Source: an uncultured Planctomycetales bacterium
GTDB taxonomy: Bacteria > Planctomycetota > Phycisphaerae > UBA1845 > JAFGLZ01
Direction: 5' to 3'
Length of the DNA: 48,436 nucleotides
Assembly (NCBI GenBank): GCA_964550865.1
Contig: CAZKCX010000001.1
Location: 1 to 48,436, forward strand
Part shown: positions 27,570 through 48,436 of the stretch, in pieces
Numbering within the stretch: position 1 is the first letter of the stretch
Layout: every line of letters starts with the position of its first letter
Program-made: the position numbers and the translations under genes
Notes under the pieces: model-generated
What the model was told of the DNA's origin: nothing
Databases searched by the model: none
What the model saw: the letters and a program-made list of their open reading frames with translations, nothing else

Positions 27570-28513
27570 TGCCGTGGGCGCCGTGTCCATCCCAATCTGT
27601 CGTTCGGGGCGCGTCGCGTCGCGCCGCGATGCTGCTCGAGGTGCTGATCTCGATCGCCATCATGGTGTTGGCGATCGCGACGATCGGGGCCCAGGTCAGC
27701 AATTCGCTGAACGCGGCGGACTACACCGACAAGCTCAACCGCGGGCTGATGCTGGCCGAGTGGGTGATGGCCGAGATGGACCTACCGGCAGAGGAAGAGG
27801 ATCGGTTGGTGGACATCCACGGCGAGGAGGGCGAGGGCACGTTCGGCGAGCGTTACCCGGGCTTTGCATGGCGGATTCGCCGCGAGCCCACGGACGTCGA
27901 CAACCTCGACCTGATCTCGTTGGAGATCCTCACCGGGGATCCGGAAGAGCCCGACCTCGACAGCTGGGACGTCTTGCACACGGTCTACGCGTTGCGGCCG
28001 ATCGTGGCCGAGTTCGATCCGACGGATTTCGGCATGCCGAGCGAAGAGGACATCGGTCTGCTGGCTGCTGCCACGCCGCCGACAGGGGAAGACGGGACGG
28101 TCCCCGGGGCGCTCCCTCCGGAGCTGGAGGAGCTGTTGGCGGCCTTGCCCATGCCGATGCAGGAGATCTTCCAGCGGATCCTCGGCGGCGAACCCGTCCC
28201 GATGGACGAGATTCGCACCGCGATCAGCGAACTGACGGCGGAGGACCTGCTGGGATTGCTGACGACGCCGGCGCTCTTTGGCGTGTTGACCGGCGGGATG
28301 GGCGGGATGATGGGAGGCGGGGGTGGTGGCATTCCCGGCCTGGAGCAGCTGCTCGGCGGCGGCGCCGGTGGGGCCGACACGCAGGCCCTTCAGAAGGCGC
28401 TGCAACAAGGGAACCTGCCCAACCAGCAGGCGCTTCCGTCGGCGCTGGGCGGAGAGGACCTGGACACCGGGCAGGCGGAAACCCCGGGACGGCGACGGAG
28501 ATTTCGACGCTGA
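27566..28513 (+). CDS. minor pseudopilin, GspI-like, with Gly/Met-rich C-terminal tail
   Basis: ATGA overlap with the previous gene. N-terminus RRAAMLLEVLISIAIMVLAIATIG...RGLMLAEWVMAEM (GspI-like, no canonical Gly at -1). Tail: GGMGGMMGGGGGGIPGLEQLLGGGAGG. Confidence 0.55.
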   Translation: MMPWAPCPSQSVVRGASRRAAMLLEVLISIAIMVLAIATIGAQVSNSLNAADYTDKLNRGLMLAEWVMAEMDLPAEEEDRLVDIHGEEGEGTFGERYPGFAWRIRREPTDVDNLDLISLEILTGDPEEPDLDSWDVLHTVYALRPIVAEFDPTDFGMPSEEDIGLLAAATPPTGEDGTVPGALPPELEELLAALPMPMQEIFQRILGGEPVPMDEIRTAISELTAEDLLGLLTTPALFGVLTGGMGGMMGGGGGGIPGLEQLLGGGAGGADTQALQKALQQGNLPNQQALPSALGGEDLDTGQAETPGRRRRFRR

Positions 28514-28520
28514 GACGATC

Positions 28521-29669: not shown

Positions 29670-29712
29670 TCGGCGGACCGGGCGCGCGGCGGGTGCCGTG
29701 CGGAGGTCTTGG

Positions 29713-31269: not shown

Positions 31270-32833
31270 TCGGAAGGTGCTCGCGCTCGACTGGGATCGC
31301 GAGTCGATCCGTATCGTCCATACGTCGACGAGCCGGAAGGGGCCTCGTGGCGTGCGCGGTGTGTTCGTGCCCGTGACGGAAGGGGTCGATATCGACGACC
31401 CGGAGGCGCTCGGCCAGTTCATCGGCCGCGCGCTGAAGCAGCGTCGCATTCGCACGCGACGGGCGATCGTCTCGATTCCCCGTGACCAGGCCGTTCTGCA
31501 CATGCTGAGCCTGCCGAACGTCCCGCCCGACGAGATGCCGTCGGTCGTGCACTTCCAGATCACGAAGGAGCTGCCCTTCGCCTTGGAGGAGGCGAAGATC
31601 GACTTCGCCACCTTCCCGGCCGAGGCGGAGGCCGAGAACGTCGATGTCCTCGTCGCCGCCGTGCGGAACGATGTGCTCGAGCACTACCAGCAGGTCTGCC
31701 AGAACGCCGGGTTGCAGCTCGAGCGGGTGGGCCTCCGGCCGTTCGCGAACACCGTGGCGGCCCTATACGGGCGTGAGGACGAGCAGACCGGCTGTCTCTT
31801 GCTGGTGGATGTCGGGCCGACGTTGACCGAGATCGACCTGATCCGGCAGGGTCGCCTGTCGTTCTCTCGCGCGGCGTCCGTGAATGTGCCGATCCTGCCG
31901 GCCGTTCGCAGTCAGGGCTCACTCGAGGGCGAGGGCGGGCCGGTGATGATCGCCCCGACGGACACCGAGCAGGAGGAGGCCGTCGAGAGCCTCATGGTCG
32001 AGGTGAACCGAACGATCGAGGCGTATCGGGTGACGGATCCCGGGGCCGAGATCGGCTCGGTGGTGATCGGAGGTTCCTGCGGGATCGAGGATCGCCTCTG
32101 TCGCGAGATCGAAGAGCGGTTCGGGGCGCCCGCGCGGCTGTACAACCCGGGTGAGACCATTGCCAAGCTGGCGGATCGCGGGGATGAGTTCGCCGCCTTC
32201 AGCGCTCCGCTGGGGCTGTCGATCGGTCACGGCACCGAAGGGGTCCTGCACTTCGACTTCCTCCATCCGAAGGAGCCCGTCGATCTCGGTCGCGAGCGGG
32301 CACGGCGGATTCCGATGATCGCCGCGTCGGTCCTCTTACTCCTGGTGGCCATGATGGGGTTCCGCTGGCGGGTCGGCAGCATTCGTGACGCCGAGGTCGA
32401 AGTGGTCAAAGAGAAGGCCGAGAAGCTCAAGGAAGAGGCGAAAGAGGTAGACGAGTTCAAGGACCAGGTCATGGCCGCCTCGGCGTGGGCGGAGCGGGAG
32501 CTCGTGTGGCTGGAGGAGCTGGCGACCATCACGAACCTCTTCCCGGATACGAGCGAGGTGTACGCTACGAAGTTCTATGCGAAGGACGAGGGGCGGATCA
32601 GCTTCGAGGTTCGCGCGAAGATCATGCCGCGCCTGGAGAAGCTGCGCATGGAGTTGGAGAAGCTCGGACCCTACATCGCGCGACTCGGCACGGTTAAGCA
32701 AGTCGGTGACGCGCGAGGGTACAACTTCCAGACCGACATCATCCTCCAGCGCAAGCCGGACGAGGACTTCAAGGGATCGGATACGAAAAGCAAGAAGGCC
32801 AAGTCGAATACGAGGTCGAAGCGGCGGCGCTAG
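31244..32833 (+). CDS. PilM-type actin-like assembly protein fused to a PilN-like TM/coiled-coil segment (GspL-equivalent)
   Basis: GTG 31244 after GAGGAAG. PilM-like N-domain: VLALDWDRESIRIVH...AIVSIPRDQAVLHMLSLPNVPPDEMPSVVHFQITKELPFALEEAKIDF...LLLVDVGPTLTEIDL. TM segment IPMIAASVLLLLVAMMGF. Lys/Glu coiled coil and a periplasmic domain follow. Confidence 0.8.
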   Translation: MRLPGPLADRKVLALDWDRESIRIVHTSTSRKGPRGVRGVFVPVTEGVDIDDPEALGQFIGRALKQRRIRTRRAIVSIPRDQAVLHMLSLPNVPPDEMPSVVHFQITKELPFALEEAKIDFATFPAEAEAENVDVLVAAVRNDVLEHYQQVCQNAGLQLERVGLRPFANTVAALYGREDEQTGCLLLVDVGPTLTEIDLIRQGRLSFSRAASVNVPILPAVRSQGSLEGEGGPVMIAPTDTEQEEAVESLMVEVNRTIEAYRVTDPGAEIGSVVIGGSCGIEDRLCREIEERFGAPARLYNPGETIAKLADRGDEFAAFSAPLGLSIGHGTEGVLHFDFLHPKEPVDLGRERARRIPMIAASVLLLLVAMMGFRWRVGSIRDAEVEVVKEKAEKLKEEAKEVDEFKDQVMAASAWAERELVWLEELATITNLFPDTSEVYATKFYAKDEGRISFEVRAKIMPRLEKLRMELEKLGPYIARLGTVKQVGDARGYNFQTDIILQRKPDEDFKGSDTKSKKAKSNTRSKRRR

Positions 32834-32900
32834 ACCGCCTCTGCGCTCGACGCGGAAGCGGTGGGTTCGGCGAATGGGGAAGGCGGATAGGCGATAGAGC

Positions 32901-33962
32901 ATGGAGAAGCGACAACGGTACTTGATGATCGCCGTCGGGGTGCTGCTGGCCTTTGGTGTGGTCAGCCGGCTCGTTCCCTGGCTTCTCGATCCGATCACGA
33001 GCGCCGACAAGCGGATCCGGAGCTATCAGCGGAAGATCAAGGAATACCGAGGCAAGATCGAGCAGAAGCCGTTCTTGCTCGAGAAGTACCGTAGCCTGGC
33101 GAGCAAGACGTTGGGCTTGAGCGAGACCGAGGCCGGACAGGCCCTGCACGCGAAGATGGTCGAGGTGGCTAAAACCAGCAGGCTGCAGAGACCGACGATC
33201 GGACAAGCGTTCTTGCGCTCGTTCACCGATCAGGAGACGCGTTCGCGCATCACGATCGTGAAGGTCGCCATCAGCGGCCAGGGCTCGATCGCCGAGGTGG
33301 TCCGATTCCTGGAGAACTTCTACAAGCTGCCGTACCTCGTCCGGATTCGGACGCTCTCGTTGAACCCCTTCCACCAGCGAAAGGGTATGCTGCTCAAGAT
33401 CAACGCGGACGTTGAAGCGCTGGTGCTCCAGTCCCATCCGCTCGTCGATCCGGAGACCGTCGAGACGGCGGAGCTGGACATGAAGAAGCTCCCGCCGAGC
33501 GACCGCTACAAGCCGGAGAAGGCCAAGTTCTATCAGCAGGTGGTGCAGAAGAACATCTTCGAGCCGGTGGTCAAGGTCGCTTCGGAGCAACCGAAGGAGC
33601 GGACGCCGGTTCGCGGGCGGCCCCCTCGGAGAGGGCGTGACGCCCGGGAGGACGTGATTCTCGTCCTGGCCACCCGCTATCCGTGGGTCGATCCGCAAGA
33701 CGGCACGGAGTATCTGATCCAGGAGGCGGTAACGCGCAATAGCCGGACGAAGGAGAAGCTGGTTCGCCGGGTCGGTGAGGATTTCCATGGTCAAGGCACG
33801 CTAGTGTATGTGGATTCGTACGGCGCGGTCGTGCGAACGCCGCAGAAGCAGTACCTTGTATTCCCGTTGGGCAAGACCCTCAAGGACGGGGAGTCCCTAA
33901 GCCCCGAAATGCACCCCGATCTGTATCGGGCGGTACAAGAAATAGAAACACAGACCAAGTAG
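32901..33962 (+). CDS. PilO/GspM-like inner-membrane assembly protein with C-terminal extension
   Basis: 353 aa. N-terminal TM YLMIAVGVLLAFGVV, a coiled coil, and PilO-like VRFLENFYKLPYLVRIRTLSLNP. An Arg-rich linker and a ~110-aa beta-rich C-terminal domain follow. Confidence 0.6.
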   Translation: MEKRQRYLMIAVGVLLAFGVVSRLVPWLLDPITSADKRIRSYQRKIKEYRGKIEQKPFLLEKYRSLASKTLGLSETEAGQALHAKMVEVAKTSRLQRPTIGQAFLRSFTDQETRSRITIVKVAISGQGSIAEVVRFLENFYKLPYLVRIRTLSLNPFHQRKGMLLKINADVEALVLQSHPLVDPETVETAELDMKKLPPSDRYKPEKAKFYQQVVQKNIFEPVVKVASEQPKERTPVRGRPPRRGRDAREDVILVLATRYPWVDPQDGTEYLIQEAVTRNSRTKEKLVRRVGEDFHGQGTLVYVDSYGAVVRTPQKQYLVFPLGKTLKDGESLSPEMHPDLYRAVQEIETQTK

Positions 33963-34078: not shown

Positions 34079-37000
34079 ATGATCTCTTCGTTACTATGGC
34101 GTCTTCGTAGGCGGTCCGGCGTGGTCGCGCTGGCGATTGGCATGGCCGTCGCGGGGGGCGACGGAGTGCTTGCCGCCGAGGCACCGGCACGGAAAGGAGC
34201 GACGACCCAGTCGGCTCGACGATCTCCCACGACGCTCCCGGCGAAGTCGAAGTCCGCCACCGTGGACAGAGCAAAGTTGGCCGAGGCGATGCGTCGTGCG
34301 CGGACGTCGACCCAACGTGCCGCTGCGACCGCACGGGCCCGCGCCGAGGCCCTGGCACGACAACGCCAGGCGACACAAGCCCGGACCTCGGAAGAATCCA
34401 ACCCGAGCAAAACGGCGCTCAGCGCGGAGGAGCGAAGAAACCGCTTCAAACGCCGCTTGCAGGAGATTCGCGAGCGATCCCGCAAGTCCCCGACCACCTC
34501 GGTGGAGACCCGGCAACTCGCCAAGAACTCCACACCGAAGGCCCCCGCACCCAAGGCGAACAACAAGAACGGGGCGCAGGGCCGGCCGACCCCGCCCCCG
34601 GCCGCCCCGCAGCCACCCCCCGAGGAGCGCAAGTACGTCCTGAGCTTCCAGAAGGCGACCTGGGACGAGATTCTCAACACGTTCTGTCGCTGGAGCGGCC
34701 TGACGATCATGGGCAAGTACCCCACGACGACGGGCGACGGCATTACGTACATCAACCAGCGGCCGCTGACGTACCATGAGGCCTTGCATGAGCTCAATCT
34801 TCTGCTGATGCAGAACATCCCCAGCTACTACCTGATGCGGGAGAAGAACCACCTCATGCTGCGGCGGATGTCGGATTGGCCCCATTACGTGCCGATGGAC
34901 AACCGTTTCTACAGCGTGGAGGAGTTCAAAAAGGCCGAGATCGACGACGACGAGTGGGCGATGGTCTTCTACACGCCCGAGGTCAGCGACGTCGGCGAGG
35001 TGATTACCGAGATCCTCCAGACCATGCCCGACGGCGTGGTCCTGCCGGCGACCATGGGCGAGACCAGGCGCCTCAAGGTCACGGGCATCGTCCACTACAT
35101 CCGCCAGTTTATCCGGCTGGCCGAGAGCGACATGTTCAAGGACGAGGCGGCCGACGCGGCGAAGCTCCGCAAGATCAAGTTCTACAAGATCGAGCGGGCA
35201 CAGGCCTCCTCGGTGCAGCAAGTCCTCGAGCGGATCGTTCTGCCGCCAAAGCGCACCCGGTTCACGAGCGCCGACGAATCGCAGAAGGTCGACATGGTGC
35301 TCGATCAACTCAGCAACACGATCATCGTCAAGGCCCGCGAGGAGCACCATCGCGAGATCGAGGCCATGATCGAGAAGATCGAGAAGGCCGAGCTGGTCTC
35401 GGACGCGCAGGTGACCTTCCTCAAGCTCGAGCACGCCCGGGCGGAAGACCTGGCCAACCTGATGAATCCGCTGCTGCAGCGGCAGGCATCGATGAAGCCG
35501 AGCTTCGATCGACGCCAACGGGAGCGGGAGCAGGTCTATCTCCAGGCGGATCCGGCCAGCAACAGCCTGATCGTGCTGGCGGCGAAGGAGGGGCTCGAGC
35601 GCGTCAAGAAGCTGCTCGAGCAGCTCGACGTCGAGACGCCGGAGGCCCAATACAGACGGATCGAGCTGGAGCACGTCAACGCCGACCAGATCTTCACGGT
35701 CGTCAACAACATCGTCCAGTCGCGTCAGGGGCGGTTCCGAGGCCGTCGCGGCGGCGGGCAGCAACTCCAGGTCATGCCGGATCCGACCGGCAACGCGCTG
35801 TTCGTGATGGGCAACCCGAAGGACATGGAGTTCGTCGAGGAGCTGGTGGCCGAGCTGGACGCCGAGGACGTCGAACGGACCAAGACGCACATCATCAAGC
35901 TCAAGAAGGCGCGGCCGAGCATGGTCTCGCAGGGCTTGCAGGCGATCTTCGGCGGGGACACCGGTGGACGACGACGCCGCACGCCGACGGGGTCCTTCCG
36001 CGCGCTACCGGACGATCAAAGCGGCGTGCTCGTGGTGATCTGCCTCGACAAGGATTGGAAGGAGATCGAGCAGCAGATCAAGGAATTCGACGAGCAATCC
36101 GTCAGCACCGATCCGGTCATGCGGACGATCCCGATCACGCATGGGGATGCCGAGGAGATCGCCACGACGCTGAACAACGCCCTACGAGGGCGTTTGGGTC
36201 GGACTCCCGTGACGGTCGGCGCCGACCGGAAGAACAACATGCTGTTCGTCACGACGCTGGAGCCGGCATTCGAGGAGATCGAGTCGCTGATTGAGAAGCT
36301 CGACAAGCCCAGCAAGGAGGGCAAGCTCGAGGTCATCCCGCTCCAACACGCCAGCGCGACCGACGTGGCCAACCTGATCACGCAGATGTTCACGGTGACA
36401 CGATCGCGCGGCCGATTCGGCGGCGGCGGGACCGCGCCGGTGATCATCCCGGACCAGATCGCCAACGCCTTGGTCGTTCGCGCGACGAAGACCGACCTGG
36501 CGGAGATCGAGCTGCAGGCCGCGCGGATCGACGACGCCGCTCGCGACGAGGGCAACAGGCCCACGATCATCCCGCTCGAGTACGCAGATCCGTCGCAGGT
36601 CGCCAGCATGTGCGAGACGATGTTCATCCGCCGGACGAGCCGGCGGAGCCGGTCCGCGGAGCAGACGACGTTCTTCATGCCGATCCCGACGGGGCTGGTG
36701 GTTCGTGCGCCCTCCCAGCAGATGGGCGAGATCAAGGATTTCATCGAGACGGTCGACTCCCCGGAGTCGGTGAACGTCGAGATCAAGACGGTGCAGCTGC
36801 CGGGCCAGGACGTCGAGCAGATCGCGAGCATCCTGCAGAACATGTTCGCCGGCGAGCGGCGAAGGCGTAGCGGCGGCGGCTCGATCAACTTCCTGCCGAA
36901 CCCGAGCTCGGACATGCTGGTGATCACCGCGCCCAAGAAGCGCTTCGAGGAGATCGACAAGGTCATCCAGCAGTACACCGAGGGTGTGAAGGTCGCGCAG

Positions 37001-40000
37001 GCGTCGATGAAGATGATCGACCTGAACAACGCCCGCGCCGACGAGGTCGCCCAGCTGCTGACGGAGATGCTCGGGGCCAAGCTCGGCCGTCGCGGACGTC
37101 GCAGCGAGATGCGTCAGGTGCAGATCCTTCGAGATCCCCGGCAGAACAAGCTGATCGTCTTCGCGCCGGACGACATCATGCAGCAGGCCGAGGAGATGGT
37201 GAAGCAGCTCGATGTGCCCATCGGCGACGAGGGCGGCGTGCGGTGGATCGAGCTCGAGAACGCCGACGCGAGCTACGTCGCCTCGACCCTCCAGCAGATG
37301 TGGGAGACGAAACAGCGACGTGGCCGTCCGCGCTTCGAGCAGCTGCCCGTGCAGATCTGGGCGGAGGCGATCACGAACTCGGTGCTGGTGATGGCCTCGC
37401 AGGAGGATTACAAGGAGATCGAGAAGCTCGCCAAGGAGCTGGACAGCAAGTTCAAGTCCGCCACGACCCAGCCGACGATCGTCAAGCTCAAGTACGCCGA
37501 GCCGAGCTACGTCATCACCATGTGCCAGGAGATGTTCCTGCCGCGGGCGGGCCAGCGTCCGGGTGCGCGACGGAGCAAGGCCACCGAGAGCATTTCCTTC
37601 ATCCCCATGCGGGACGGCCTGATGGTCCGCGCGCCCCAGTCGCGGATGAAGGACATCCTCGAATTCATCGAGAGGCTCGACGACCCGGGCGAGACCAAGC
37701 TGACCGTCAAACGCTACCACCTCAAGGGCATGGACGTCCAGACGCTGTACACCACGCTGAGCGAGGTCTTCAGCAAGACGGATCTCCAGCGCGATGAACC
37801 GCGCCCGGGCTTCGCCGTCGATCCACCGAACGAGACGGTGACGGTCACGTGTTGGACGTCCCGTCTGCCGGACATCGAGAAGGTCGTCGAGGACTTCAAG
37901 AAGGCCGAGGCCGAGAAGGAGCCCAGCAAGCGGGAGATGATCGAGGTCAAGTACACCCGCGCGACCTATGCGGCCTCGACGTTGGAGAGCCTGCTGCGGA
38001 AGGAACTGGGCGATCGGGCGGCCCGGCTGGGCAGTCGGTTGAGCATCGGCGTGGAGGATCGGTTGAATAGGGTCGTGGTCTTCGCCCCACCGGATGTCAT
38101 GGAGAAGGCCAAGGCGATCCTGGCGACGATCGACGTGAAGATGCCGGGCGCGACGACGCGCGCGTCGGACATCGACTTTCAGGTGGTCAAGTGGATCCCG
38201 ATGGAGAACATCGACGCGTCGTCGGCCGCGAGCACCATCAACCAGATCTGGGAGGCCTCGCAGCCGCCGCGCCGCTCGCAAGAGAACCGCCCGCCGATTC
38301 GGATCTGGCCTGAGACAATCACGAATACCGTGCTGGTGGCCGGGGCGTACGGCAAGGAGTACGAGCTCATAGAGACCATCGCCCAGGACATCGACCAGAA
38401 GGCGATCGAGAACCCCAACAAGCCCATCCTCATCAAGCTGGACTACGCCACGCCCAGCGAGGTGACCAGCATGGTCGAGGCGCTCTTCGTCCCGCCGGGC
38501 CGACGCCGTCAGAAGGAAGTGATGATCTCGACGGTGAGCGGCGGCGTGATCGTCCGGGCGCCGAAGGTCAAGCTGAAAGAGATTCAGGAGTTCATCGACT
38601 CCTACGACGAGCCCGACGCCACAGGCCTGAAGATCCAGACGTTCTACCTGCCGCAGACGAACGTCAGCGAGCTGGCCAGCACGCTGAGCACGATCTTCGG
38701 CTACAAGGAAAGACGACGAAATGAGCCCGGCTGGAGCTTCATCCCGAACACCGACGCCGACATGCTCATGGTGCTCGCTCCCGAGACCCGGATGAAGGAA
38801 ATCGAGGAGGTCATCAAGGAGTACGAGGAAAACGTTCAGAAGATGACCTCCAAGATGCAGATGTTCGACCTGCAGTTCACGCGGGCGGATTACGTCGTCG
38901 GGGTGCTGAACGATCTGCTCCGCGAGAAGCTTCGCCGCACGCGCGGACGGCGGGCCGTCAACCAACTCCAGATATCGTACGAGTCGCGGCAGAACAAGGT
39001 CGTCGTCTTCGCCCCCGACGAGGTGATGAAGCAAGTCGAGGAGATGATCAAGCAGATCGACATCGAGCTTCCGGACGAGGGCGATCGGGTCAAGTGGATC
39101 CAGATCGAGTACGCCGACGCCGGCGAGGTCGCCCAGACGGTCGAGCAGATGTTCGAGCAAAAGCGGGGGAGCCGGCGCCGCCGGGATTCGTACTCCATCC
39201 GCGAGGTCCGCATCTGGCCGGAGCGCGTCACCAACAGCATCCTCGTCAGCGCCGACCAGGAGGATTACGAGGAGATCGAGAAGCTCGCCAAGAAGATCGA
39301 CGAGGAGTACGCCACCAAGGGCCTGGAGCGCGTCAAGATCACGCCCAAGTACGTCAGCGTCAGCCAGATCCAGAGCCTCATCGACAGCCTGTTCTACGCG
39401 CGGACCCACCGGCGCGATGTGCGGCATCAGACCCAACGGATTCGCATCATCCCAGCCGGTGCGTACAGCTTCTTCCTGGAGGCGCCGAAGGACAAGCTTT
39501 CCGAGGTCCAGAAGCTCATTGAGGAGATGGACACTGAAGGCGAGAACGCCCCCATCGTCAAGACGTTCAAGATGGGTGACGTGGATGTCCGCCAGCTCGC
39601 TCAGGCGCTGAGCATGACCACGGGGAACATCGGGTCGTACATGCCGGATCCCCGCCGCGGGGCGCTGATCGTCAGCGCGCCGAAGCACCAGTTCGACCGC
39701 ATCGAAAAGGCGATGGAGCAGCTCAAGGCCGACATCGAGGAGGAGGAGGCCCAGTTCCGTGTCTTCACGCTCAAGCATGCCCAGCCCAACGCCATCGATG
39801 GCCAACTACGATCCCTCATCAGCATGCGCCTGAGCCGTCGCACCCGCTACCGCGGGGAAGACCTGCGGCTTTCGCTGATGGCCGATCGGAGCAACAACCG
39901 GCTGTTCGTCTACGCCGGGCCGGAGGAGATGGCCCTCGTTGAGTCGATGTTGGAAGAGCTCGACGTACCCGGCCTCAGCCAAGAGGCCGTCCTGCGGACG

Positions 40001-43000
40001 CTGCCCCTGGAACGGACCGACTGCGAATACATGGCCAGCGTGATCCAGCAGGTCTTCACACCCGAGGAGCTCAAGCGCCGTCGCGTCCGTCGCGGCATGT
40101 CCTCGCAGGACGCCATCCCGATCCGCGTCGTGCCCGAGCCGACGACGAACACGCTGCTGGTTACCTGCGCGGAGGAGGACTTCCGCGAGATCGAGCTCTT
40201 CGTCGCCCGGCAAGAGGACGCGTATCGGGAGAAGGAGAAGGCCCTCGAGCTGATCACGCCGAAGTACGTGACGGAAAGCCAGCTGATGGCCACGGTGAAC
40301 GCGATCTACAACCCGCCGCGTCGTCGCGGGGAGCGCCAGAAGCGCTATACGGAGATCCGCGCAATCCCGGCCAGTGGCAGCAGCTTCTTCCTGGAGGCGC
40401 CGAAGGACAAGATGGAAGAGCTGAAGGAGCTGATCGCCAAGCTCGACGTCGAAGACCAGAACCGGCCCGTCGTCCGTACCTACAAGCTCAAGGACGTCGA
40501 CGTGCGGCAGCTCACGCGGCTGCTCCAGACCACGATGCAGAACAAGGGAAGCTTCATCGCGGACCCGCGAATGGGCATGGTCATCGTCAGCGCTCGGGAG
40601 TTCCAGTTCCCCGAGATCGAGGAGATGATGACCAAGCTCCAGAAGGACTTCGAGGAGACCCGCCAGCAGTTCGAGATCATCGAGCTCGAGCACGCGCGGC
40701 CGAGCTCGGTCTACAGCACGCTCAGTCAGCTGGTCAGCATTCGCATGAGTGAGCGGCGGAGTCGACGCGGCCAAAGCCTTCAGCTCTCGATGATTCCGGA
40801 CGACAGCAACGGGCGGTTGTTCGTCTATGCCGCCCAGGAGGAGATGGAGCTGGTCAAGGAGATGCTCGGGAAGCTGGACATCCCGGGGATGATCAAGGAG
40901 GCCCAGCTCTTCACGATCGAGTTGGATCGTCTGGATTGCAGCTATATGGCCAGCAAGATCCAGCAGGTCTTCACGCCGGAGGAGCTCAAGCGCCGGCGCG
41001 TCCAGCGCGGCGATTCGGCCCAGGACCTGATCCCGATCCGCGTCGTCCCCGAGGACATGACCAACTCCCTCCTGATTACCTGCGCCGAGGAGGACTTCCA
41101 GGACATCCAGAAGTTCGTCATGGAGCGCGAGGCCGCCTACACGAAGAAGGACAAGGTCCGCGAGCTGATCACGCCGAAGTTCATCAGCCAGAACCAGCTG
41201 ATGGCCACGATCAATGCCATCTACAATCCCCCGCGGCGGCGGGGGGTGCGTCAGAAGGACGTGCCGGACATCCGGGCGATCCCCGCCAGCGGCAGCAGCT
41301 TCTACCTGGAAGCGCCCAAGGACAAGATGCCCGAACTGCTCGAGCTGGTGAAGACGCTCGATGTCGAGGACGAGAACCAGCCCGTCGTGCGGACCTACCG
41401 CGTCAAGGACGTGGACGTCCGCCAGCTCGCGAGCCTGCTGCAACAGACGATGCAGAACAAGGGCAGCTTCTATGCGGACACGCGGATGGAGATGCTCATC
41501 GTCTCGGCCCCGGAGTTCCGGTTCGAGAAGATCGAGCAGACGATGAACGATCTAAAGGAGAACCTTGAGGCCGTCCGTCAGCAGTTCAAGGTCTTCCCGC
41601 TGAAGTTCGCCAAGGCGAGCAACATCTATAGCCAGCTCAGCCAGCTCGTCACGACACGCGTTCGCGGACGTCGGGGCAACGCGGAGCTGACGATTCTGCC
41701 CGACCAGGTGCTCAACCGCCTCTTCGTGTACGCCGGTGACGAGGAGATGAAGGTCGTCGAGGACATGCTCGCCGAGCTGGACGTCGAGGGCGTCGAGCCC
41801 GAGCAGCAGGTCTACTCGATCGAGCTGGAAAACGCCGACTGCAGTTGGGCCGCGTCCATGGTCCAGAACATGTTCACGCAGGAGGAGCTTCGCCGGCGTC
41901 GTCGGGGTCGGACCGGAACCGTCGTCGCGCCCATCCGCGTGCTGGCCGATCAGATGAGCAACCGCCTGCTGATCTGGGCCTCGCCCCGCGACTACGAGGA
42001 CATCGAGAAGTTCGTCATGGAGCTGGACGAGCGCGCGGAGGAGACCAAGATCGAGCGGCGGATCCTCCAGCCGAAGTTCATCCGCGCGAACGAGCTGTAC
42101 GGCATGATCCAGACGCTGTTCCTTCAGCAGCGTCGACGGACCGGCCAGCGCCAAGAGTTCATCGAGACGTTCATGGTGATGAGCGGGGCCGACATCATCC
42201 TAAATGGCCCGAAGGACCGGCTCGACGAGATCGAACAATTCGTCAAGTCGGTCGATACCGAAGAGCGCGCCAAGCTCGAGATCAAGACCTTTGAGCTGCC
42301 CGACGTCGATCTGAACTCGCTCATCTCGATGCTCAACCAGGTCTTCGCGCAGGATGCGCGGCGGCAGCGCGGCAACACGCTCTTCATCCCGGATCCGCAG
42401 AACAACGAGTTGATGGTCTCTGCACCGAAGTCGCTGATGAAGGACATCGAGGAGTTGATCGACAAGAAGCGCGAGGGCGCGGCCAAGCGAAGCCGCAGGC
42501 TCACGATGGTCGAGGTCAAGCACACCGACGCGAACTACCTGGCGAACATGTTGCGCCCCTTAATCGTCGAGAAGGCGCGAAGCCGTCGCGGTCGGTACGT
42601 CCAGCCGGAGGTCACGATCACCCCCGAGCCGCGCATGAACCGGCTGTTGATCATGGCCGCCGAGGCCGAGACGCAGATCGCCATGGAGCTGATCCAGGAG
42701 CTGGACACCGAGGCCATGGCGCTGAAGGGACAGGTCCGGACGATCGAGCTCAAGAAGGCGGAGGCCAGCTACGTCGCCAGTACGCTCCAGACGATGTTCA
42801 GCCGACGGAGCCAGATGCGCCAGTCGTACTCGTCCTCGACGACACCGGTGTACGTGGTGGCCGAGGAGATGACGAATCGGCTCTTCGTGGCGGCCAGTGA
42901 TGCGGACTTCAAGGAGATCGAGAAGCTCGCCCAGGAGATGGACGAGGCCGCCGAGCTGGAAGGCGTGCAGGAAGAGAAGATCGAGATCAAGTTTGCCAAC

Positions 43001-46000
43001 CCGAGCCAGCTCGTCAGCGTGATCCAGCAGATGTTCACGCCGCTCAAGAGCCGCGGCCGTCGGCAGGAGAGCGACGTCCGGTTGAACGTGATGGGCACAA
43101 ACATCATCGCCCAGGCGCCGGCCAAGAAGATGGTCGAGATCAAGCGGTGGATCCAGGAGCTGGACGTCGAGGAATTCGCCGAGACGGTGACGAAGTTCAT
43201 CCCGTTGGAGATCGCCCGCGCGCGGGAGATCGTCGGCATCATCCAGCCGATGCTCCAGGCCAAGGCGCAGGAGCTGGAGCTTCGGCAGGGCCAGCGGAAG
43301 CGTCGCGGCGGGGAGCTTCAGGTGTTGCCGGACGTCCGGAACAACCGCCTGATCATTACCGCGCAGAGCCAGATCGTCACGATGGCCGAGGAGTTGATCA
43401 AGGAGCTCGACGTCGAGGACCCGGCGTGGACGGGGGAGACGGTGGAGATCGTCGACCTCGACAAGGCCGACGCCACACAGGTCGCCCAGGTGCTCGACCA
43501 GATTCTGCGCGACGACGAAGGGGGGCGCCGGCGCCGGCCGAAGAAGGGCAGCAGTCGAGAATACACCGGACTCGCGGTCACGATCGTGCCCGATGCGGCC
43601 AGCAATACCCTCATCCTCAAGGGCCTGCCGCGCGAGCTGGATCGCGTCAAGGAACTGGTCGCGGAGATCGAGGAGAAGGCCGTCGCCGGCGGCGTGCAGT
43701 TCCAGCTCTATCGTTTGGAGGAGTCGGACGCCGAGGAGGTCGCCACCGTCGTCCAGCAGATGGTCACGGCGGCAAGCGGCGCGCGAGGCCGCCGCGCGCC
43801 CGTCCAGGTCACGAGCAACTACATGATGAACGCGGTCTTCGTGGCGGGCACGGCCAAGCAGCAGACGATGGCCAAGGCCGTGATCGACGCGTTCGAGGAG
43901 CCCGCCTACGAGATCGACCCGGTGACCGGTGAGAAGACCCTTATCGAGCGAAAGCCGTTCGAGTTCATCACGCTGGAGTACTCCGACGCGTACGATCTGC
44001 TTTATGACATCGAATCCCTCGTGGAGAAGCGGTTTGGTGAAAAGGGACCAACGCTCGAGACCCTCTGGAATGACTCGTCGGTGCTAATGGTCAGCGGCAA
44101 GCCCGACCAGGTGAAGTACGTCAAGGAGTTGGTCCAGTTCTTCGAGGACAAGAACGCCAAGAAGCCGCCCGTCACGCGGACGTTGGACCTGGGCATGCTC
44201 AGGGCGGAGGATCTCAAACGCCAGCTCGGTGCCTGGGGATTGGCCGATCCGAACAAGGTGACGCTCGTGGGCGAGGAGCCCGTCGGCGAGCTGGTCAAGG
44301 AGATCACGATCAAGCACGCGATGGAGCTTCGCCAGCAGGCAAAGGACCCGAACTTTTCGGAGAAGGAAGGGGGGCGCACGCGATCCAAGAAACTCTATCG
44401 CAAGCCCAAGACGAAGAAGGGCGGTTCGCGGTTCGAGCCGCCGAGCGTACTCGCGGAGTTGCGGGCGGAGTTAAGTGGCATCGTTTGCTCGGCCAAGGCC
44501 ACAACGACGAAGCCCGTGACCACACAGCGGACCAAGACGCTGAAGATCCGCAAGAAGAAGGCGCCGACCACCGCAGCGGTCAAGAACGCGGCGACGGTGA
44601 AGGCCAAGGCCAAACCCAAGTCTCCGCCGGCGACGAAGAAGCAAGATCCCAAGGCGAAGTCGTCGGGCAAGGCCAGGGCCGATGCGGCGAAAGCCGCCGC
44701 CGAGAGGAAGCAGGATCCCAAGGCCAAGAGTGCGCCGAAGAAGGCCGACTCGCCGTCCGCGGCCGACACCAAGAAGATCCTAGGCAAGTCCAAGCCGAGC
44801 AAGTCGACCGCCGAGCCGGTCGTCAGGCAGGCGACGACGGCGCCGCCGAAGGCCATCCAGGTGGCCACGCCCGACAAGTCTGAACCGAAAGCAAAGCAGC
44901 GGTCGTCGCGCAAGCCGGCCGCGAAGTCGAACGCCAAGACCGCCCCAGCGAAGACCAAGCCCGCCAGCGCCAAGAAGGATCCCGAGGCAAAGGCGGCCAA
45001 GACGGAGGCGGCACCTTCGAAGGCGGGCGGCTCGGAGGCTGCGAAAAAGGCCGCCACGGCAGAGGCCACGGAACCCGTAGCGCCGAGGCGCGAGTCCTCG
45101 GACGCCGAGTCCCTTGGCCTCGGGATGCGGCGAACTCGGGGCGATGAGCCAAGGCAGCGAAGGCAGCCGCCGGTTGAGGTCATCATCGACGCGAAGACGG
45201 GCACCATTCAGGTTAAGGGTCCCGACCGCAAGGTGGCGGAGATCGAGGAGTTGATCGGTACGCTCCAGTGGGAGATCGAGCCGCCGGCCGGCAAGGAGAC
45301 CGAGATCCGGGTCTATCAGCCCGAGTACATCGACGTGAACGTAGCGGCGGCGCTGTTGGAACGGGTGTTCAACGAGCGGCGCAAGCGGGTTGTTCCTCCC
45401 AAGCGGACCGCGCAGAAGGGCAAGAAGGAGGAGAAGAAAGAACCGGACGAGGAAGAGCGGATGATGTCGAATCTCCGCGAGATGATGCGAAGCCAAGGGG
45501 CAGCCGCCGCGGCGGCGGGGCTCCGCATCGTGCCGGATTCCCGTACGGGCTATCTCGTGATTCGGGGCCATCCCGAGACGATCGAGGAGGCCCTCGAGCT
45601 GTTGGCGAAGATGGACGTGCCGGGCCTGCCGCCGGGGGATATCCGGTACTTCCACTTGGTGAACCTGGACGCCCAGGAGGTCGAGCAGAGCCTCAAGGCC
45701 GTTCTGAAGCTCGAGACCCGACGGCCGAAGCTGCCGGCGATCCCGAAGGATCAGAACAAGGCCATCAAGGCCCTCCAGCAGCAGATCCAGCAGCTGCAAG
45801 GTGCGACGGGTGGCGTGGCGTTTACAAGCGATCAGGTGACGATCACGTCCAACGCCTCGACGAATACGTTGATCTGCATGGCGCCGGACGAGGTGATGAA
45901 GGAGATCGAGGACTTCATCGACACGCTCGAGACCGAGGCGGGCGGCATCGAGATCGAGACGCTCACGCTCGATGCGGCGGACGCCACGCAGGTCGCCAAG

Positions 46001-48436
46001 TCGATGACGTCCCTGTACAGCCGTCGTGCGGCGGCCGGCAAGGGCAGCGCGGCCGGTGGATTGCTGACGATCACCGCCGACGCGGCGAGCAACACGATCT
46101 TCGTCCGCGGCCCGAGGGACCTCCGCGCCGAGGTGATCGCGCGAGTCAAGGAGCTCGACTCGCAGGCATCTGAGATGGGCAAACCCTTCCGCATCGAGCT
46201 GACGAACGCCGACGCCGAGGTGATTGCCCCGAAGCTGCAGGCCATGTTCGAGACGCGGAAGGCGCGCAAGAGCCAGCAGGTGTCGTTCTTCGGCGACAAC
46301 GCGAGCAATACCCTGGTGGTCCGCGCGCCGGAGACCATGCGCGAGCAGATCATGGAGATGGTCAAGGCGCTGGATGTGGAGTCGGTCGACATCGACTTCC
46401 GCGTGTTCCCGCTCGAGCACGCGATGGCGACCGAGGTCCATCAGGCGCTCACCCAGATGACGATGCAGGTCTTCGCCCAGCTTCGCCAGCAGGGAAAGCG
46501 AAACATGAAGATGGACGTCTTCGCGGCCGTTCCCGATCCGCGGACGAATTCGCTGGTGGTCACGGGCGGCGAGACGACGTTCCTGATCGTCGAGAAGATC
46601 CTCTCCCAGCTGGACGTCGAGCCGCGCGGTGTGACCGAGCAGGTGACCGTGCTCTATCAGCTCCAACAGGCGGATGCCTCACAGGTCGCTCAGGCGATCA
46701 CCCGTCTGTACTCGAGCGGACGTGGCAGCCGGTACCTCAAGAAGACAGGGATGGAACCCCCACAGGCGGAGTACGACAGCATCACCAACACCGTGATCGT
46801 CCGCACCACCGAGAAGCTGCACAAGATGATCAAGAAGGAGATCATCGATAAGCTCGAGGACTTCAGCAAGAACAAGAAGATCAAGGACGTCACGCTCGCG
46901 CTGGAGCACGCCAAGGCCGACGACGTCGCCCAGATCCTGACGGAGTACTTCTCGCAGAAGGAGCGCCGACGGCGGGGCAAGGCGAACCCCAACGACTTCG
47001 TCCTGATCGTCGCGGAGCCCGACACCAACTCCCTCCTCATCCAGGCCAACGAGGAGAATCTGGAGGTCATCCAGGGACTCGTTGCGAAGATGGATCGCGA
47101 GGACGTCGCCGGCCGGAGCGCCCGCAAAACCAAGGTGATCCAGCTCGAGTACGCCGATCCGGGCTCGACGGCGTCGGCGATCCGCCAGGCGTTTGAGGAT
47201 GGGCGGCGGAGTCGTCGCAGTCGCGTGGGCCTTCGGGATCGCGTGGACGCCGTGCCGGAGTACACCACAGGCAGCCTGATCGTGACGGCCAGCGCCGAGA
47301 ACATGAAGGAGGTCGACGCGATCATCGAGCAGCTGGACGTCGAGACCGCCACGAAGCGCGAGACCAAGCAGGTCAAGCTCGAGCACGCCGACGCGACGGA
47401 AGTGGCCCGTCAACTCACGCAGATGTTCTCCCAGACGCGGGGCCGGACGCGACGCGGGATCCTGCCGGTGATCGTGACGGCGGACGAGCGGACGAATTCC
47501 GTGATCGTTTCGGCGAAGGCGAAGGACCTTACCGAGGTCGAGAAGCTCGTCAAGACGTTGGACGTCCCGAGCGACCTGCTGGAACGTCGCAAGCTGCGGA
47601 TCTTCCAGCTCGAGTGGGCCGATCCGTACGGGATGGCCCAGATGATCTCCCAGGCGTTCCGTACCCGAGGTGGGCGGCGGAGCCCCAGCCAGGAGGTCTT
47701 CGCGACGGCGGAGTACTCGACGGGCTCGCTGATCGTCTCGGCCTCGCCGGACAACATGGAGTTGATCGAGCAACTGGTCAAGGACGTGGACCAGGAAGGC
47801 ACGACGGGAAAGAAGATGCACGTGCTGGAGGTCAAGAACGCCGAGGCGGCCGACATCGCCGACGCGCTCGAGGACATGTTCGTCCGCGGTCGCCGCCGAT
47901 CGCGAGGCGGCCAGACGCCGGTCTCCCTCGTCAGCCCGGAGGGCACGAACAAGATCATGGTGATGGCCAGCGAGGCGGAGTACAAGAAGATCGCCGAGGC
48001 CGTGCAGGAGATGGACGTCGGCGCGGCCGATACCGCCGTCCGGTCGATCCGGCTGGTGAACATTGCGCCGGAAGAGGCGCAGACGATCCTCGAGGAGTTC
48101 CTGCGCAAGCCGGGGCGCCGCAGGCGATACGACCCGACGCTCATGGGCAACGTCCGCGTGACGGTGAGTCCGTCGGCGGGATCGCTGATCATCACGGCGC
48201 GGAAGGAGAAGCTCGACGAGCTGGAGGCGCTCATCAAGAAGATCGACGCCGAGGCCGCGGAAGAGGGCGCGGGCGTCCGCAAGATCGCCGTCTTCCGCCT
48301 GGATTTCGCCAATCCGTACTACACCGCTCAAGCGATCAGCACGACGTTCCGGAAGTCCGGGCGGGTGGCCGAGAGCGATCTGGTGACGGCGACCGCCGAG
48401 GCGAGCACGAGCGCGGTGATCGTCGCGGCCAGCGAG
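34079..48436 (+). CDS. giant secretin-family (GspD/PilQ-like) protein: signal peptide + N0-like domain + ~53 tandem secretin N-domains; 3' end outside window
   Basis: Not in the ORF track because the frame never closes. No closed plus-strand ORF is listed in this frame after 34079. Manual codon-by-codon translation found no stop over 14,358 nt, which is exactly 4,786 codons. SD GGAGGG at 34064-34069. Signal peptide MISSLLWRLRRRSGVVALAIGMAVAGGDGVLAAEA. N0-like domain KYVLSFQKATWDEILNTFCRWSGLTIMG...TYHEALHELNLLLMQN. Repeated 70-85 aa units follow the consensus h.h.L..A.A..VA..L..MF-(Arg-rich loop)-h.h..D..TNSLhV.A......IE.Lh..LD. Confidence 0.85.
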   Translation, partial: MISSLLWRLRRRSGVVALAIGMAVAGGDGVLAAEAPARKGATTQSARRSPTTLPAKSKSATVDRAKLAEAMRRARTSTQRAAATARARAEALARQRQATQARTSEESNPSKTALSAEERRNRFKRRLQEIRERSRKSPTTSVETRQLAKNSTPKAPAPKANNKNGAQGRPTPPPAAPQPPPEERKYVLSFQKATWDEILNTFCRWSGLTIMGKYPTTTGDGITYINQRPLTYHEALHELNLLLMQNIPSYYLMREKNHLMLRRMSDWPHYVPMDNRFYSVEEFKKAEIDDDEWAMVFYTPEVSDVGEVITEILQTMPDGVVLPATMGETRRLKVTGIVHYIRQFIRLAESDMFKDEAADAAKLRKIKFYKIERAQASSVQQVLERIVLPPKRTRFTSADESQKVDMVLDQLSNTIIVKAREEHHREIEAMIEKIEKAELVSDAQVTFLKLEHARAEDLANLMNPLLQRQASMKPSFDRRQREREQVYLQADPASNSLIVLAAKEGLERVKKLLEQLDVETPEAQYRRIELEHVNADQIFTVVNNIVQSRQGRFRGRRGGGQQLQVMPDPTGNALFVMGNPKDMEFVEELVAELDAEDVERTKTHIIKLKKARPSMVSQGLQAIFGGDTGGRRRRTPTGSFRALPDDQSGVLVVICLDKDWKEIEQQIKEFDEQSVSTDPVMRTIPITHGDAEEIATTLNNALRGRLGRTPVTVGADRKNNMLFVTTLEPAFEEIESLIEKLDKPSKEGKLEVIPLQHASATDVANLITQMFTVTRSRGRFGGGGTAPVIIPDQIANALVVRATKTDLAEIELQAARIDDAARDEGNRPTIIPLEYADPSQVASMCETMFIRRTSRRSRSAEQTTFFMPIPTGLVVRAPSQQMGEIKDFIETVDSPESVNVEIKTVQLPGQDVEQIASILQNMFAGERRRRSGGGSINFLPNPSSDMLVITAPKKRFEEIDKVIQQYTEGVKVAQASMKMIDLNNARADEVAQLLTEMLGAKLGRRGRRSEMRQVQILRDPRQNKLIVFAPDDIMQQAEEMVKQLDVPIGDEGGVRWIELENADASYVASTLQQMWETKQRRGRPRFEQLPVQIWAEAITNSVLVMASQEDYKEIEKLAKELDSKFKSATTQPTIVKLKYAEPSYVITMCQEMFLPRAGQRPGARRSKATESISFIPMRDGLMVRAPQSRMKDILEFIERLDDPGETKLTVKRYHLKGMDVQTLYTTLSEVFSKTDLQRDEPRPGFAVDPPNETVTVTCWTSRLPDIEKVVEDFKKAEAEKEPSKREMIEVKYTRATYAASTLESLLRKELGDRAARLGSRLSIGVEDRLNRVVVFAPPDVMEKAKAILATIDVKMPGATTRASDIDFQVVKWIPMENIDASSAASTINQIWEASQPPRRSQENRPPIRIWPETITNTVLVAGAYGKEYELIETIAQDIDQKAIENPNKPILIKLDYATPSEVTSMVEALFVPPGRRRQKEVMISTVSGGVIVRAPKVKLKEIQEFIDSYDEPDATGLKIQTFYLPQTNVSELASTLSTIFGYKERRRNEPGWSFIPNTDADMLMVLAPETRMKEIEEVIKEYEENVQKMTSKMQMFDLQFTRADYVVGVLNDLLREKLRRTRGRRAVNQLQISYESRQNKVVVFAPDEVMKQVEEMIKQIDIELPDEGDRVKWIQIEYADAGEVAQTVEQMFEQKRGSRRRRDSYSIREVRIWPERVTNSILVSADQEDYEEIEKLAKKIDEEYATKGLERVKITPKYVSVSQIQSLIDSLFYARTHRRDVRHQTQRIRIIPAGAYSFFLEAPKDKLSEVQKLIEEMDTEGENAPIVKTFKMGDVDVRQLAQALSMTTGNIGSYMPDPRRGALIVSAPKHQFDRIEKAMEQLKADIEEEEAQFRVFTLKHAQPNAIDGQLRSLISMRLSRRTRYRGEDLRLSLMADRSNNRLFVYAGPEEMALVESMLEELDVPGLSQEAVLRTLPLERTDCEYMASVIQQVFTPEELKRRRVRRGMSSQDAIPIRVVPEPTTNTLLVTCAEEDFREIELFVARQEDAYREKEKALELITPKYVTESQLMATVNAIYNPPRRRGERQKRYTEIRAIPASGSSFFLEAPKDKMEELKELIAKLDVEDQNRPVVRTYKLKDVDVRQLTRLLQTTMQNKGSFIADPRMGMVIVSAREFQFPEIEEMMTKLQKDFEETRQQFEIIELEHARPSSVYSTLSQLVSIRMSERRSRRGQSLQLSMIPDDSNGRLFVYAAQEEMELVKEMLGKLDIPGMIKEAQLFTIELDRLDCSYMASKIQQVFTPEELKRRRVQRGDSAQDLIPIRVVPEDMTNSLLITCAEEDFQDIQKFVMEREAAYTKKDKVRELITPKFISQNQLMATINAIYNPPRRRGVRQKDVPDIRAIPASGSSFYLEAPKDKMPELLELVKTLDVEDENQPVVRTYRVKDVDVRQLASLLQQTMQNKGSFYADTRMEMLIVSAPEFRFEKIEQTMNDLKENLEAVRQQFKVFPLKFAKASNIYSQLSQLVTTRVRGRRGNAELTILPDQVLNRLFVYAGDEEMKVVEDMLAELDVEGVEPEQQVYSIELENADCSWAASMVQNMFTQEELRRRRRGRTGTVVAPIRVLADQMSNRLLIWASPRDYEDIEKFVMELDERAEETKIERRILQPKFIRANELYGMIQTLFLQQRRRTGQRQEFIETFMVMSGADIILNGPKDRLDEIEQFVKSVDTEERAKLEIKTFELPDVDLNSLISMLNQVFAQDARRQRGNTLFIPDPQNNELMVSAPKSLMKDIEELIDKKREGAAKRSRRLTMVEVKHTDANYLANMLRPLIVEKARSRRGRYVQPEVTITPEPRMNRLLIMAAEAETQIAMELIQELDTEAMALKGQVRTIELKKAEASYVASTLQTMFSRRSQMRQSYSSSTTPVYVVAEEMTNRLFVAASDADFKEIEKLAQEMDEAAELEGVQEEKIEIKFANPSQLVSVIQQMFTPLKSRGRRQESDVRLNVMGTNIIAQAPAKKMVEIKRWIQELDVEEFAETVTKFIPLEIARAREIVGIIQPMLQAKAQELELRQGQRKRRGGELQVLPDVRNNRLIITAQSQIVTMAEELIKELDVEDPAWTGETVEIVDLDKADATQVAQVLDQILRDDEGGRRRRPKKGSSREYTGLAVTIVPDAASNTLILKGLPRELDRVKELVAEIEEKAVAGGVQFQLYRLEESDAEEVATVVQQMVTAASGARGRRAPVQVTSNYMMNAVFVAGTAKQQTMAKAVIDAFEEPAYEIDPVTGEKTLIERKPFEFITLEYSDAYDLLYDIESLVEKRFGEKGPTLETLWNDSSVLMVSGKPDQVKYVKELVQFFEDKNAKKPPVTRTLDLGMLRAEDLKRQLGAWGLADPNKVTLVGEEPVGELVKEITIKHAMELRQQAKDPNFSEKEGGRTRSKKLYRKPKTKKGGSRFEPPSVLAELRAELSGIVCSAKATTTKPVTTQRTKTLKIRKKKAPTTAAVKNAATVKAKAKPKSPPATKKQDPKAKSSGKARADAAKAAAERKQDPKAKSAPKKADSPSAADTKKILGKSKPSKSTAEPVVRQATTAPPKAIQVATPDKSEPKAKQRSSRKPAAKSNAKTAPAKTKPASAKKDPEAKAAKTEAAPSKAGGSEAAKKAATAEATEPVAPRRESSDAESLGLGMRRTRGDEPRQRRQPPVEVIIDAKTGTIQVKGPDRKVAEIEELIGTLQWEIEPPAGKETEIRVYQPEYIDVNVAAALLERVFNERRKRVVPPKRTAQKGKKEEKKEPDEEERMMSNLREMMRSQGAAAAAAGLRIVPDSRTGYLVIRGHPETIEEALELLAKMDVPGLPPGDIRYFHLVNLDAQEVEQSLKAVLKLETRRPKLPAIPKDQNKAIKALQQQIQQLQGATGGVAFTSDQVTITSNASTNTLICMAPDEVMKEIEDFIDTLETEAGGIEIETLTLDAADATQVAKSMTSLYSRRAAAGKGSAAGGLLTITADAASNTIFVRGPRDLRAEVIARVKELDSQASEMGKPFRIELTNADAEVIAPKLQAMFETRKARKSQQVSFFGDNASNTLVVRAPETMREQIMEMVKALDVESVDIDFRVFPLEHAMATEVHQALTQMTMQVFAQLRQQGKRNMKMDVFAAVPDPRTNSLVVTGGETTFLIVEKILSQLDVEPRGVTEQVTVLYQLQQADASQVAQAITRLYSSGRGSRYLKKTGMEPPQAEYDSITNTVIVRTTEKLHKMIKKEIIDKLEDFSKNKKIKDVTLALEHAKADDVAQILTEYFSQKERRRRGKANPNDFVLIVAEPDTNSLLIQANEENLEVIQGLVAKMDREDVAGRSARKTKVIQLEYADPGSTASAIRQAFEDGRRSRRSRVGLRDRVDAVPEYTTGSLIVTASAENMKEVDAIIEQLDVETATKRETKQVKLEHADATEVARQLTQMFSQTRGRTRRGILPVIVTADERTNSVIVSAKAKDLTEVEKLVKTLDVPSDLLERRKLRIFQLEWADPYGMAQMISQAFRTRGGRRSPSQEVFATAEYSTGSLIVSASPDNMELIEQLVKDVDQEGTTGKKMHVLEVKNAEAADIADALEDMFVRGRRRSRGGQTPVSLVSPEGTNKIMVMASEAEYKKIAEAVQEMDVGAADTAVRSIRLVNIAPEEAQTILEEFLRKPGRRRRYDPTLMGNVRVTVSPSAGSLIITARKEKLDELEALIKKIDAEAAEEGAGVRKIAVFRLDFANPYYTAQAISTTFRKSGRVAESDLVTATAEASTSAVIVAASE
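36322..43170 (+). repeat. in-frame tandem super-repeat of a four-N-domain cassette (period ~900-945 nt, ~7.5 copies) inside the giant secretin gene
   Basis: Type-a domains start at ~36322, 37238, 38181, 39086, 39987, 40901, 41803 and 42728. Three copies are in exact 915-nt register, anchored at 39440, 40355 and 41270. Confidence 0.7.
44340..45170 (+). other. Lys/Ala/Pro/Thr-rich low-complexity spacer (~275 aa) embedded in the giant secretin ORF
   Basis: Translation: ...RSKKLYRKPKTKKGG...TKPVTTQRTKTLKIRKKKAPTTAAVKNAATVKAKAKPKSPPATKKQDPKAKSSGKARADAAKAAAERKQDPKAKSAPKKADSPSAADTKK...KPAAKSNAKTAPAKTKPASAKKDPEAKAAKTEAAPSKAGGSEAAKKAATAEATEP... Confidence 0.8.

Follow-up and report, generated by a model that had tools for sequence, protein, structure and literature searches.

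Analysis of a 48,436-nucleotide stretch of DNA from an uncultured Planctomycetales bacterium (contig CAZKCX010000001.1 of assembly GCA_964550865.1, positions 1 to 48,436; hereafter the window) reveals a giant type II secretion system (T2SS) gene in which an array of secretin N domains is built from a repeated block of four. Thirty-one consecutive domains, d6-d36 (36326-43411), follow the order A-B-C-D seven times and close with A-B-D, with a unit of ~305 aa or 915 nt. The best explanation of the data as a whole, and one that we consider probable, is a duplicated four-domain super-repeat in a giant T2SS gene with a proposed ring-stack function; its evolutionary part, that the core of the array grew by repeated tandem duplication of the whole four-domain block, is very likely from the sequence comparisons described here.

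The seven complete cassettes all lie on the forward strand: c1 (d6-d9, A-B-C-D, 36326-37237; orthologs 73-79% identical), c2 (d10-d13, 37238-38185), c3 (d14-d17, 38186-39088), c4 (d18-d21, 39089-39991), c5 (d22-d25, 39992-40906), c6 (d26-d29, 40907-41809), and c7 (d30-d33, 41810-42733). Cassette c4 is the oldest member of a younger c4-c6 subfamily and is 42% identical to both c5 and c6; c5 is the copy that is duplicated again in two related loci (L006 and L007, below), and c6 is its youngest paralog. A partial cassette, c8 (42734-43411, forward strand), consists of d34 (type A), d35 (type B), and d36 (type D), with type C missing; d36 scores 51 bits as type D versus 24 bits for the next type, and the same A-B-D ending is present in all relatives. 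A preliminary description of this DNA, made by reading the sequence, had proposed a recurring a-b-c-d order iterated ~7-8 times; the order is borne out by the tests that follow, and the iteration amounts to seven complete cassettes and an eighth that is only partial. The type-a starts given there lie 0-7 nt from those found here (36326, 37238, 38186, 39089, 39992, 40907, 41810, and 42734), and the measured spacing of 903-948 nt agrees with the 901-943 nt claimed.

The four-domain period is evident in both protein and DNA. Ungapped self-comparison of the protein encoded by 36322-43170 gives a single dominant peak at a lag of 305 aa (22% identity), the next being 610 aa (12%), over a background of ~8-10%; for the DNA, identity is 43.4% at a lag of 915 nt versus 32.3 ± 1.0% at other in-frame lags, and the lags of 1830 and 2745 nt are also raised, so the ~0.9 kb self-similarity expected from the preliminary description is present. 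Mean identity between individual domains of d6-d35 is 0.41, 0.37, 0.32, and 0.31 at lags of 4, 8, 12, and 16 domains, versus ~0.23 otherwise, and this lag signal stands at z = 10-12 relative to permuted domain order. The nearest neighbor of a domain is of the same type in 27 of 30 cases (3.8 expected by chance), and type-specific hidden Markov models (HMMs) built with one cassette left out at a time assign every one of the 30 domains to the type expected from its position, each by 13 bits or more. Clustering by the unweighted pair group method with arithmetic mean (UPGMA) likewise groups the domains by cassette position, as had been predicted. Peaks at one lag and its multiples, with position types that are kept in orthologs, are the pattern of a multi-domain super-repeat. 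Tandem Repeats Finder with a period limit of 500 found nothing useful, because that limit is shorter than the ~0.9 kb unit. The proposal that three copies stand in exact 915-nt register holds for parts of cassettes only: ~39150-39990 is in register with the next copy, and ~39975-40740 with the copy after that, but elsewhere in the array the A and D domains contain small indels that put the copies out of register.

The eight cassettes can all be aligned over their whole length, and the alignment runs through the linkers; together with identity at synonymous sites, this argues for common descent by block duplication, the mode of growth that had been proposed for a four-domain module. The cassettes fall into an older group, c1-c3 (32-39% mutually identical), and the younger group c4-c6, with c7 and c8 isolated. 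In the youngest pair, c5/c6, the proteins share 64% identity, and where the two copies are in register the DNA shares 73.8%, with synonymous divergence (dS) of ~0.62 and nonsynonymous divergence (dN) of ~0.26; the earlier estimate by eye that the last two copies are three-quarters identical therefore suits the B/C segment on which it was based (d23/d27 74%, d24/d28 68%) but not the whole of c5 and c6 at the protein level. In the best-conserved windows of this pair the third-position identity is ~60-70%, versus 41% expected from composition, and the longest exact matches are 20 nt between c5 and c6 and 31 nt between c4 and c5. As judged from the c5/c6 dN/dS of ~0.4 and the type consensus motifs, the type-specific residues at each cassette position are shown to be kept under purifying selection. 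The likely mechanism is unequal crossing-over or slippage between same-type domains of adjacent blocks, which preserves frame and type order. Duplication proceeded in at least two waves, which produced c1-c3 and then c4-c6, with c5/c6 last.

Related loci were obtained from genome and metagenome scans, and four of them are distinct: L005; L006 (= L010); L007 (= L004, P0016); and L009; a further locus, L008, is partial. All are metagenome assemblies and come from Phycisphaerae or "uncultured Planctomycetales" metagenome-assembled genomes (MAGs). The only locus that the metagenome scan yielded was a duplicate of L006, and a first genome scan with N-terminal peptides as the query returned no relative. 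The giant protein is collinear with its counterparts in L009 (66.8%, 4813 aa) and L005 (66.0%, 4759 aa), and the type HMMs trained on the window return perfect ABCD strings in five other proteins. Seven ABCD blocks followed by ABD are present in L005 and L009, eight followed by ABD in L006 and L007, and six followed by ABD in the fragment P0017, where the c5 ortholog is missing; P0017 is an 8.4-kb contig and its count of six may reflect repeat collapse. The comparison of cassette counts in related genomes called for in the preliminary description thus reveals differences among distant relatives, with 7, 8, and possibly 6 complete copies; strain-level variation in cassette number looks unlikely.

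Each cassette of the window has a single clear ortholog in L005 and L009, at 68-84% identity, which is above any paralog pair within the window (≤64%); the full set of cassettes thus predates the separation of these three lineages. Because c5 and c6 are nearer to their L005 and L009 orthologs (78-84%) than to each other (64%), the duplications must be old, the last of them predating lineages that are now only 66% identical overall. The preliminary description placed the most recent duplication at 39.4-42.2 kb; the youngest copies do lie there, at ~39.1-41.8 kb, but with a dS of ~0.6 they are recent only in relative terms. The extra cassette of L006 and L007 is a second c5, whose copies are 81-82% identical within a genome and 63-66% between genomes, pointing to independent duplications or to local gene conversion, and all change in cassette number is confined to the c5-c6 zone.

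The giant gene occupies 34079-48436 on the forward strand, as established from a stop-free frame, a Secretin_N match, and comparison with orthologs, and its 3' end is cut by the end of the window. The stop-free frame opens at 33779 and continues until the window ends; the gene start at 34079, which gene callers also chose on three independent Logan contigs, gives at least 4786 codons with no stop inside the window, and the N-terminus, MISSLLWRLRRRSGVVALAIGMAVAGGDGVLAAEAP, is signal-peptide-like. Pfam detects Secretin_N (PF03958) in 38 stretches (E=0, 1172 bits versus a gathering cut-off of 28.2) and nothing else of substance in these 4786 aa, and an HMM built iteratively from the giant protein itself counts 53 N domains. 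Domains d1-d39 are contiguous (35174-44146), and d40-d53 follow after a spacer and continue to the window end. Outside the cassettes lie d1-d5 (35174-36304, forward strand), which have no lag-4 partner; d37-d39 (43442-44146, forward strand), delimited with the self-built HMM and the type HMMs; and d40-d53 (45122-48436, forward strand), where the lag profile is flat and the four-domain periodicity is absent. Alignment with the orthologs predicts a C-terminus ~180-750 aa past the window end, so that by orthology the full protein would be about 5,000-5,500 aa long.

The spacer between d39 and d40 (44147-45121, forward strand) is seen in the translation as a Lys/Ala/Pro-rich low-complexity segment of ~325 aa without a Pfam match; in P0016 a spacer of different sequence occupies the corresponding site. 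Farther on, the region 45305-45931 contains two N domains (split HMM hits 41+42 and 43+44) in which the loop past the first helix is enlarged by a long insertion, and one of these insertions contains a Gln-rich stretch (QQQIQQLQ). Opposite the array, the minus strand has open reading frames (ORFs) at 36182-39805 and 39806-41443 (1207 and 545 aa) without Pfam hits; we attribute these long antisense frames to the giant gene's GC content at third codon positions (GC3) of 0.90, and they are most likely shadow ORFs.

A secretin pore domain (PF00263) is absent from the 4786 aa of the giant protein in the window, whose own C-terminus lies beyond it. The complete orthologs in L004, L005, L006, and L009 end without a pore domain and are followed by a separate gene. 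In L004 the giant ORF is 5437 aa long and breaks off partway through an N domain (beta1-alpha1, then an Arg-rich tail); 72 nt downstream begins a separate gene, which has a signal-peptide-like start of its own, MLPDILLSVLLFAAAG, and encodes 1823 aa with 11 N-domain stretches and the pore domain (TIGR02517, 809 bits); L005, L006, and L009 have the same ending of the giant ORF and a next gene with a similar start. When two segments of the giant protein itself were scanned with TIGR02517, the first 749 aa scored 125 bits and cassette c5 64 bits, against a cut-off of 351. Near the N-terminus, phmmer identifies a head domain (aa 184-268; 34628-34882, forward strand) that matches near the N-termini of 74 family members, 48 of which have a C-terminal secretin domain. 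Since the orthologs in the relatives end without a pore, a separate GspD follows, and the head is shared with fused members, the giant protein is best described, from sequence, not as a complete secretin but as the N-terminal portion of a giant one that is split.

The head domain has no Pfam or PDB sequence match and is not shared at the sequence level with ordinary GspD N0 regions; its AlphaFold 2 (AF2) model, with a predicted local distance difference test (pLDDT) score of 38, is unusable, and the domain may be N0-like. A conserved half N-domain end (…LKxLxAxxxxxVLDxMMER) followed by an Arg-rich tail occurs in four relatives (L004:26150-26450; L005, L006, and L009), and this C-terminal half-domain may be a docking element.

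The AF2 model of cassette c5 comprises four beta-alpha-beta-beta-alpha units with a pLDDT of 77.7, the fold of Secretin_N domains. A PDB profile search matches GspD N domains (E=7.5e-20), and all significant PDB hits from the profile and Foldseek searches are secretin N domains, from GspD/XcpQ of the T2SS, the Deinococcus secretin 8co1 (the top Foldseek hit of the c5 model), InvG of the type III secretion system, and PilQ of type IV pili.

GspD N domains form stacked rings. By homology to GspD N1-N3 and to the N domains of PilQ, we tentatively propose a similar ring-stack function here, a reading that seems to us quite possible while short of probable. A giant subunit would oligomerize, each domain forming one ring, and the array would form a very long periplasmic stalk or conduit from the inner-membrane platform to a separately encoded outer-membrane secretin, which in the relatives is the product of the next gene. 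Cassette number would then set the length of the stalk, and the four domain types would give the tube a four-ring periodicity; at ~3-4 nm per ring, an estimate from published secretin structures, 53-61 domains would span roughly 150-250 nm. A stronger version, which we think rather unlikely, is that the cassette is the true structural period of a ~150-250 nm periplasm-spanning tube, that the N-domain-only subunit docks via its C-terminal half-domain, and that gain and loss of cassettes tune the length of the T2SS to the enlarged planctomycete periplasm; if true, the cassette array would be a modular ruler for envelope-spanning machines.

Several observations weigh against the favored combination of a duplicated super-repeat and a ring stack. 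The AF2 monomer of c5 has a predicted template modeling score (pTM) of 0.36, which leaves the relative arrangement of its four domains undefined; the 325-aa low-complexity spacer interrupts the array; and neither the 4786 aa seen nor the complete orthologs contain a pore domain, so that a role other than lining the secretin channel is possible. All of the relatives are metagenome assemblies whose cassette counts could be affected by repeat collapse, and the short-read Logan contig L001 stops inside the array at 39495, the end of a 31-nt exact repeat. The first three of these observations also count in favor of the main functional rival, in which the domains would be strung like beads in a fibre, tether, or scaffold, either periplasmic or secreted by the adjacent T2SS, and not stacked as oligomeric rings, the cassettes simply adding length or binding sites. 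We regard such a fibre as the less likely reading, though a serious one: the head domain and the domain family also occur in the 48 fused giant secretins whose chain finishes with a pore domain, the gene lies directly upstream of a GspD gene in four relatives, and N domains of this kind, which make up all of the PDB hits, have no known role other than as ring-forming modules in the periplasmic part of secretins.

For the history of the array, a competing reading, which takes up the suggestion of the preliminary description that copy number may vary between strains by recombination, is that ongoing gene conversion and unequal recombination keep the cassettes similar, with copy number hypervariable between strains. 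The extra c5/c6 pair of L006 and L007, which is more alike within than between genomes, and the restriction of all copy-number differences to one zone are in its favor, but every cassette in the window is nearer to its ortholog than to any paralog, exact matches between copies reach just 20-31 nt, three lineages 66% identical keep the same count, and Logan contigs from three samples have 0-1 mismatches to the window as far as they reach, up to 39495; we consider this reading distinctly improbable. Structural selection could in principle have produced the four types by convergence, with no block duplication, and period-4 arrays do recur elsewhere in the family, in proteins with domains other than the ABCD types; since the similarity extends over linkers and synonymous positions and falls stepwise with lag (4 > 8 > 12), as descent predicts, we give convergence very little credence. 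Equally hard to credit is that the repeat copies are an assembly artefact, for although short-read contigs end inside the array, DNA divergence between copies is at least 26%, orthologs that were assembled independently have a collinear array, and the Logan contigs match the window until 39495. The repeat at which L001 ends (39466-39496 = 40381-40411) is the only exact repeat of at least 31 nt inside the giant gene, and the stop fits an assembly break at k=31. Two other contigs, L002 and L003, which come from separate sequencing runs, end at the same position, 36973; the sequence at that end is repeated nowhere in the window, and the cause may be a strain polymorphism or a repeat in another part of the genome. 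Internal repeats break short-read assemblies, and genes of this kind are therefore easily fragmented or miscounted in MAGs.

The giant protein belongs to a larger family of giant planctomycete secretins. A full HMMER scan with cassette c5 yields 224 representative clusters at E<1e-30, nearly all of them proteins of 2,000-5,500 aa; a local profile finds the secretin pore domain at the C-terminal end in 105 of the best 150 matches, and those members that have a name come from Phycisphaerae or Planctomycetota. The number of N domains per protein ranges from 17 to 72, often with block-wise periodicity, one example being OQB85541.1, annotated "Type II secretion system protein D precursor", a protein of 6805 aa that carries 72 N domains as well as a pore domain. 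With its 53 domains and the shared head domain, the protein described here is a member of this group of multi-N-domain secretins. Our literature search found no description of such a giant planctomycete secretin family; the family is uncharacterized, and is unusual in its scale, its split architecture, and its block-wise changes in length.

Four is not the only block size to have been amplified. Strong periodicity (z ≥5) is found in 28 of 151 family members, with a period of 4 in 13 proteins (three of them from this clade) and of 2 in nine; periods of 3 and of 5 are each seen in three. For 27 domains of P0019, 15 of P0036, 11 of P0043, and 13 of P0047, the closest relative is a paralog in the same protein at a multiple of 4, 5, 3, and 2 domains, respectively, indicating lineage-specific expansions. 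Among proteins with recognizable A-D types, the amplified block is BCD in P0025 and P0018 and CD in P0102 and P0034. From these sequences four is the commonest amplified unit and not an obligatory one, in a sample that is biased by the four-domain query. The suggestion that the structural building block may be a unit of four rings is accordingly not established: other members have amplified blocks of 2, 3, or 5 domains, BCD, or CD, and c8 lacks its C domain.

Titin and nebulin contain super-repeats of multi-domain blocks, and domain repeats in general expand several units at once. As in the array described here, their periodic similarity appears at a lag of more than one domain and position-specific types are kept in orthologs, whereas fold and biology are unrelated, the units here being bacterial and presumably ring-forming. 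Multi-domain duplication is thus an ordinary and already known mode of growth for repeat proteins; the scale is far beyond that of any studied secretin. The T2SS secretin GspD (N0-N1-N2-N3 and the secretin domain; PDB 5zdh, 5wq7, and 5wln) shares with the giant protein its N-domain family, its fold, and an operon of the gspE-F-G-K-L-M type, but has 3 N domains where at least 53 are present here, and it is not known to have a super-repeat organization; no pore domain is seen on the giant chain.

In PilQ of Thermus thermophilus and the secretin of Deinococcus radiodurans (PDB 8co1), extra N domains lengthen the periplasmic channel. Thermus PilQ has six stacked N rings that span a wide periplasm, with ring geometry that varies among N domains (PMC5745081). 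These proteins have ~six rings on the same chain as the pore, in contrast to the ~ten times more domains, the four-domain cassettes, and the separate chain found here. The fused giant planctomycete secretins, such as OQB85541.1, which are known as database entries only, are of the same family and have the head domain in common, but end in a secretin domain and amplify blocks of other sizes or other domain types, whereas in this clade the secretin is split into an N-domain-only protein and a GspD of 1823 aa. N domains and pore are also on separate polypeptides in the T2SS-derived system of mitochondria, where GspD is accompanied by separate GspDN proteins, some of them half-domains (PMC8134430); the eukaryotic proteins are single or half-domains and not a giant array. 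Studied secretins have three to six periplasmic N rings, compared with the 17-72 N domains of this family, and lineages that differ by exactly one four-domain block provide a natural experiment on whether N-domain number determines how far a secretion machine can extend through a periplasm of unusual width. The split architecture could further show how a secretin works with its periplasmic part as a separate protein.

Directly upstream of the giant gene, at 22442-33962 on the forward strand, lie T2SS genes that encode GspE (22442-24349; TIGR02533, 643.6 bits, above the cut-off of 630.25), GspF (24827-26044), GspG, three pseudopilin-like proteins, GspK, a PilM_2/GspL-like protein, and a weakly GspM-like protein (32901-33962); the giant gene is thus part of an operon with gspE, F, G, K, L, and M. 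Farther upstream, at 8982-11358 on the minus strand, a gene for an HNH endonuclease with a winged helix (306 aa) overlaps one for a C-5 cytosine DNA methylase (489 aa), and the two may be a restriction-modification pair. The region 2692-14854 also encodes a sulfatase, a GH2 glycosidase, a purple acid phosphatase-like protein, and a UPF0261 protein, a content typical of planctomycete polysaccharide degradation, and proteins of this region could be substrates of the T2SS.

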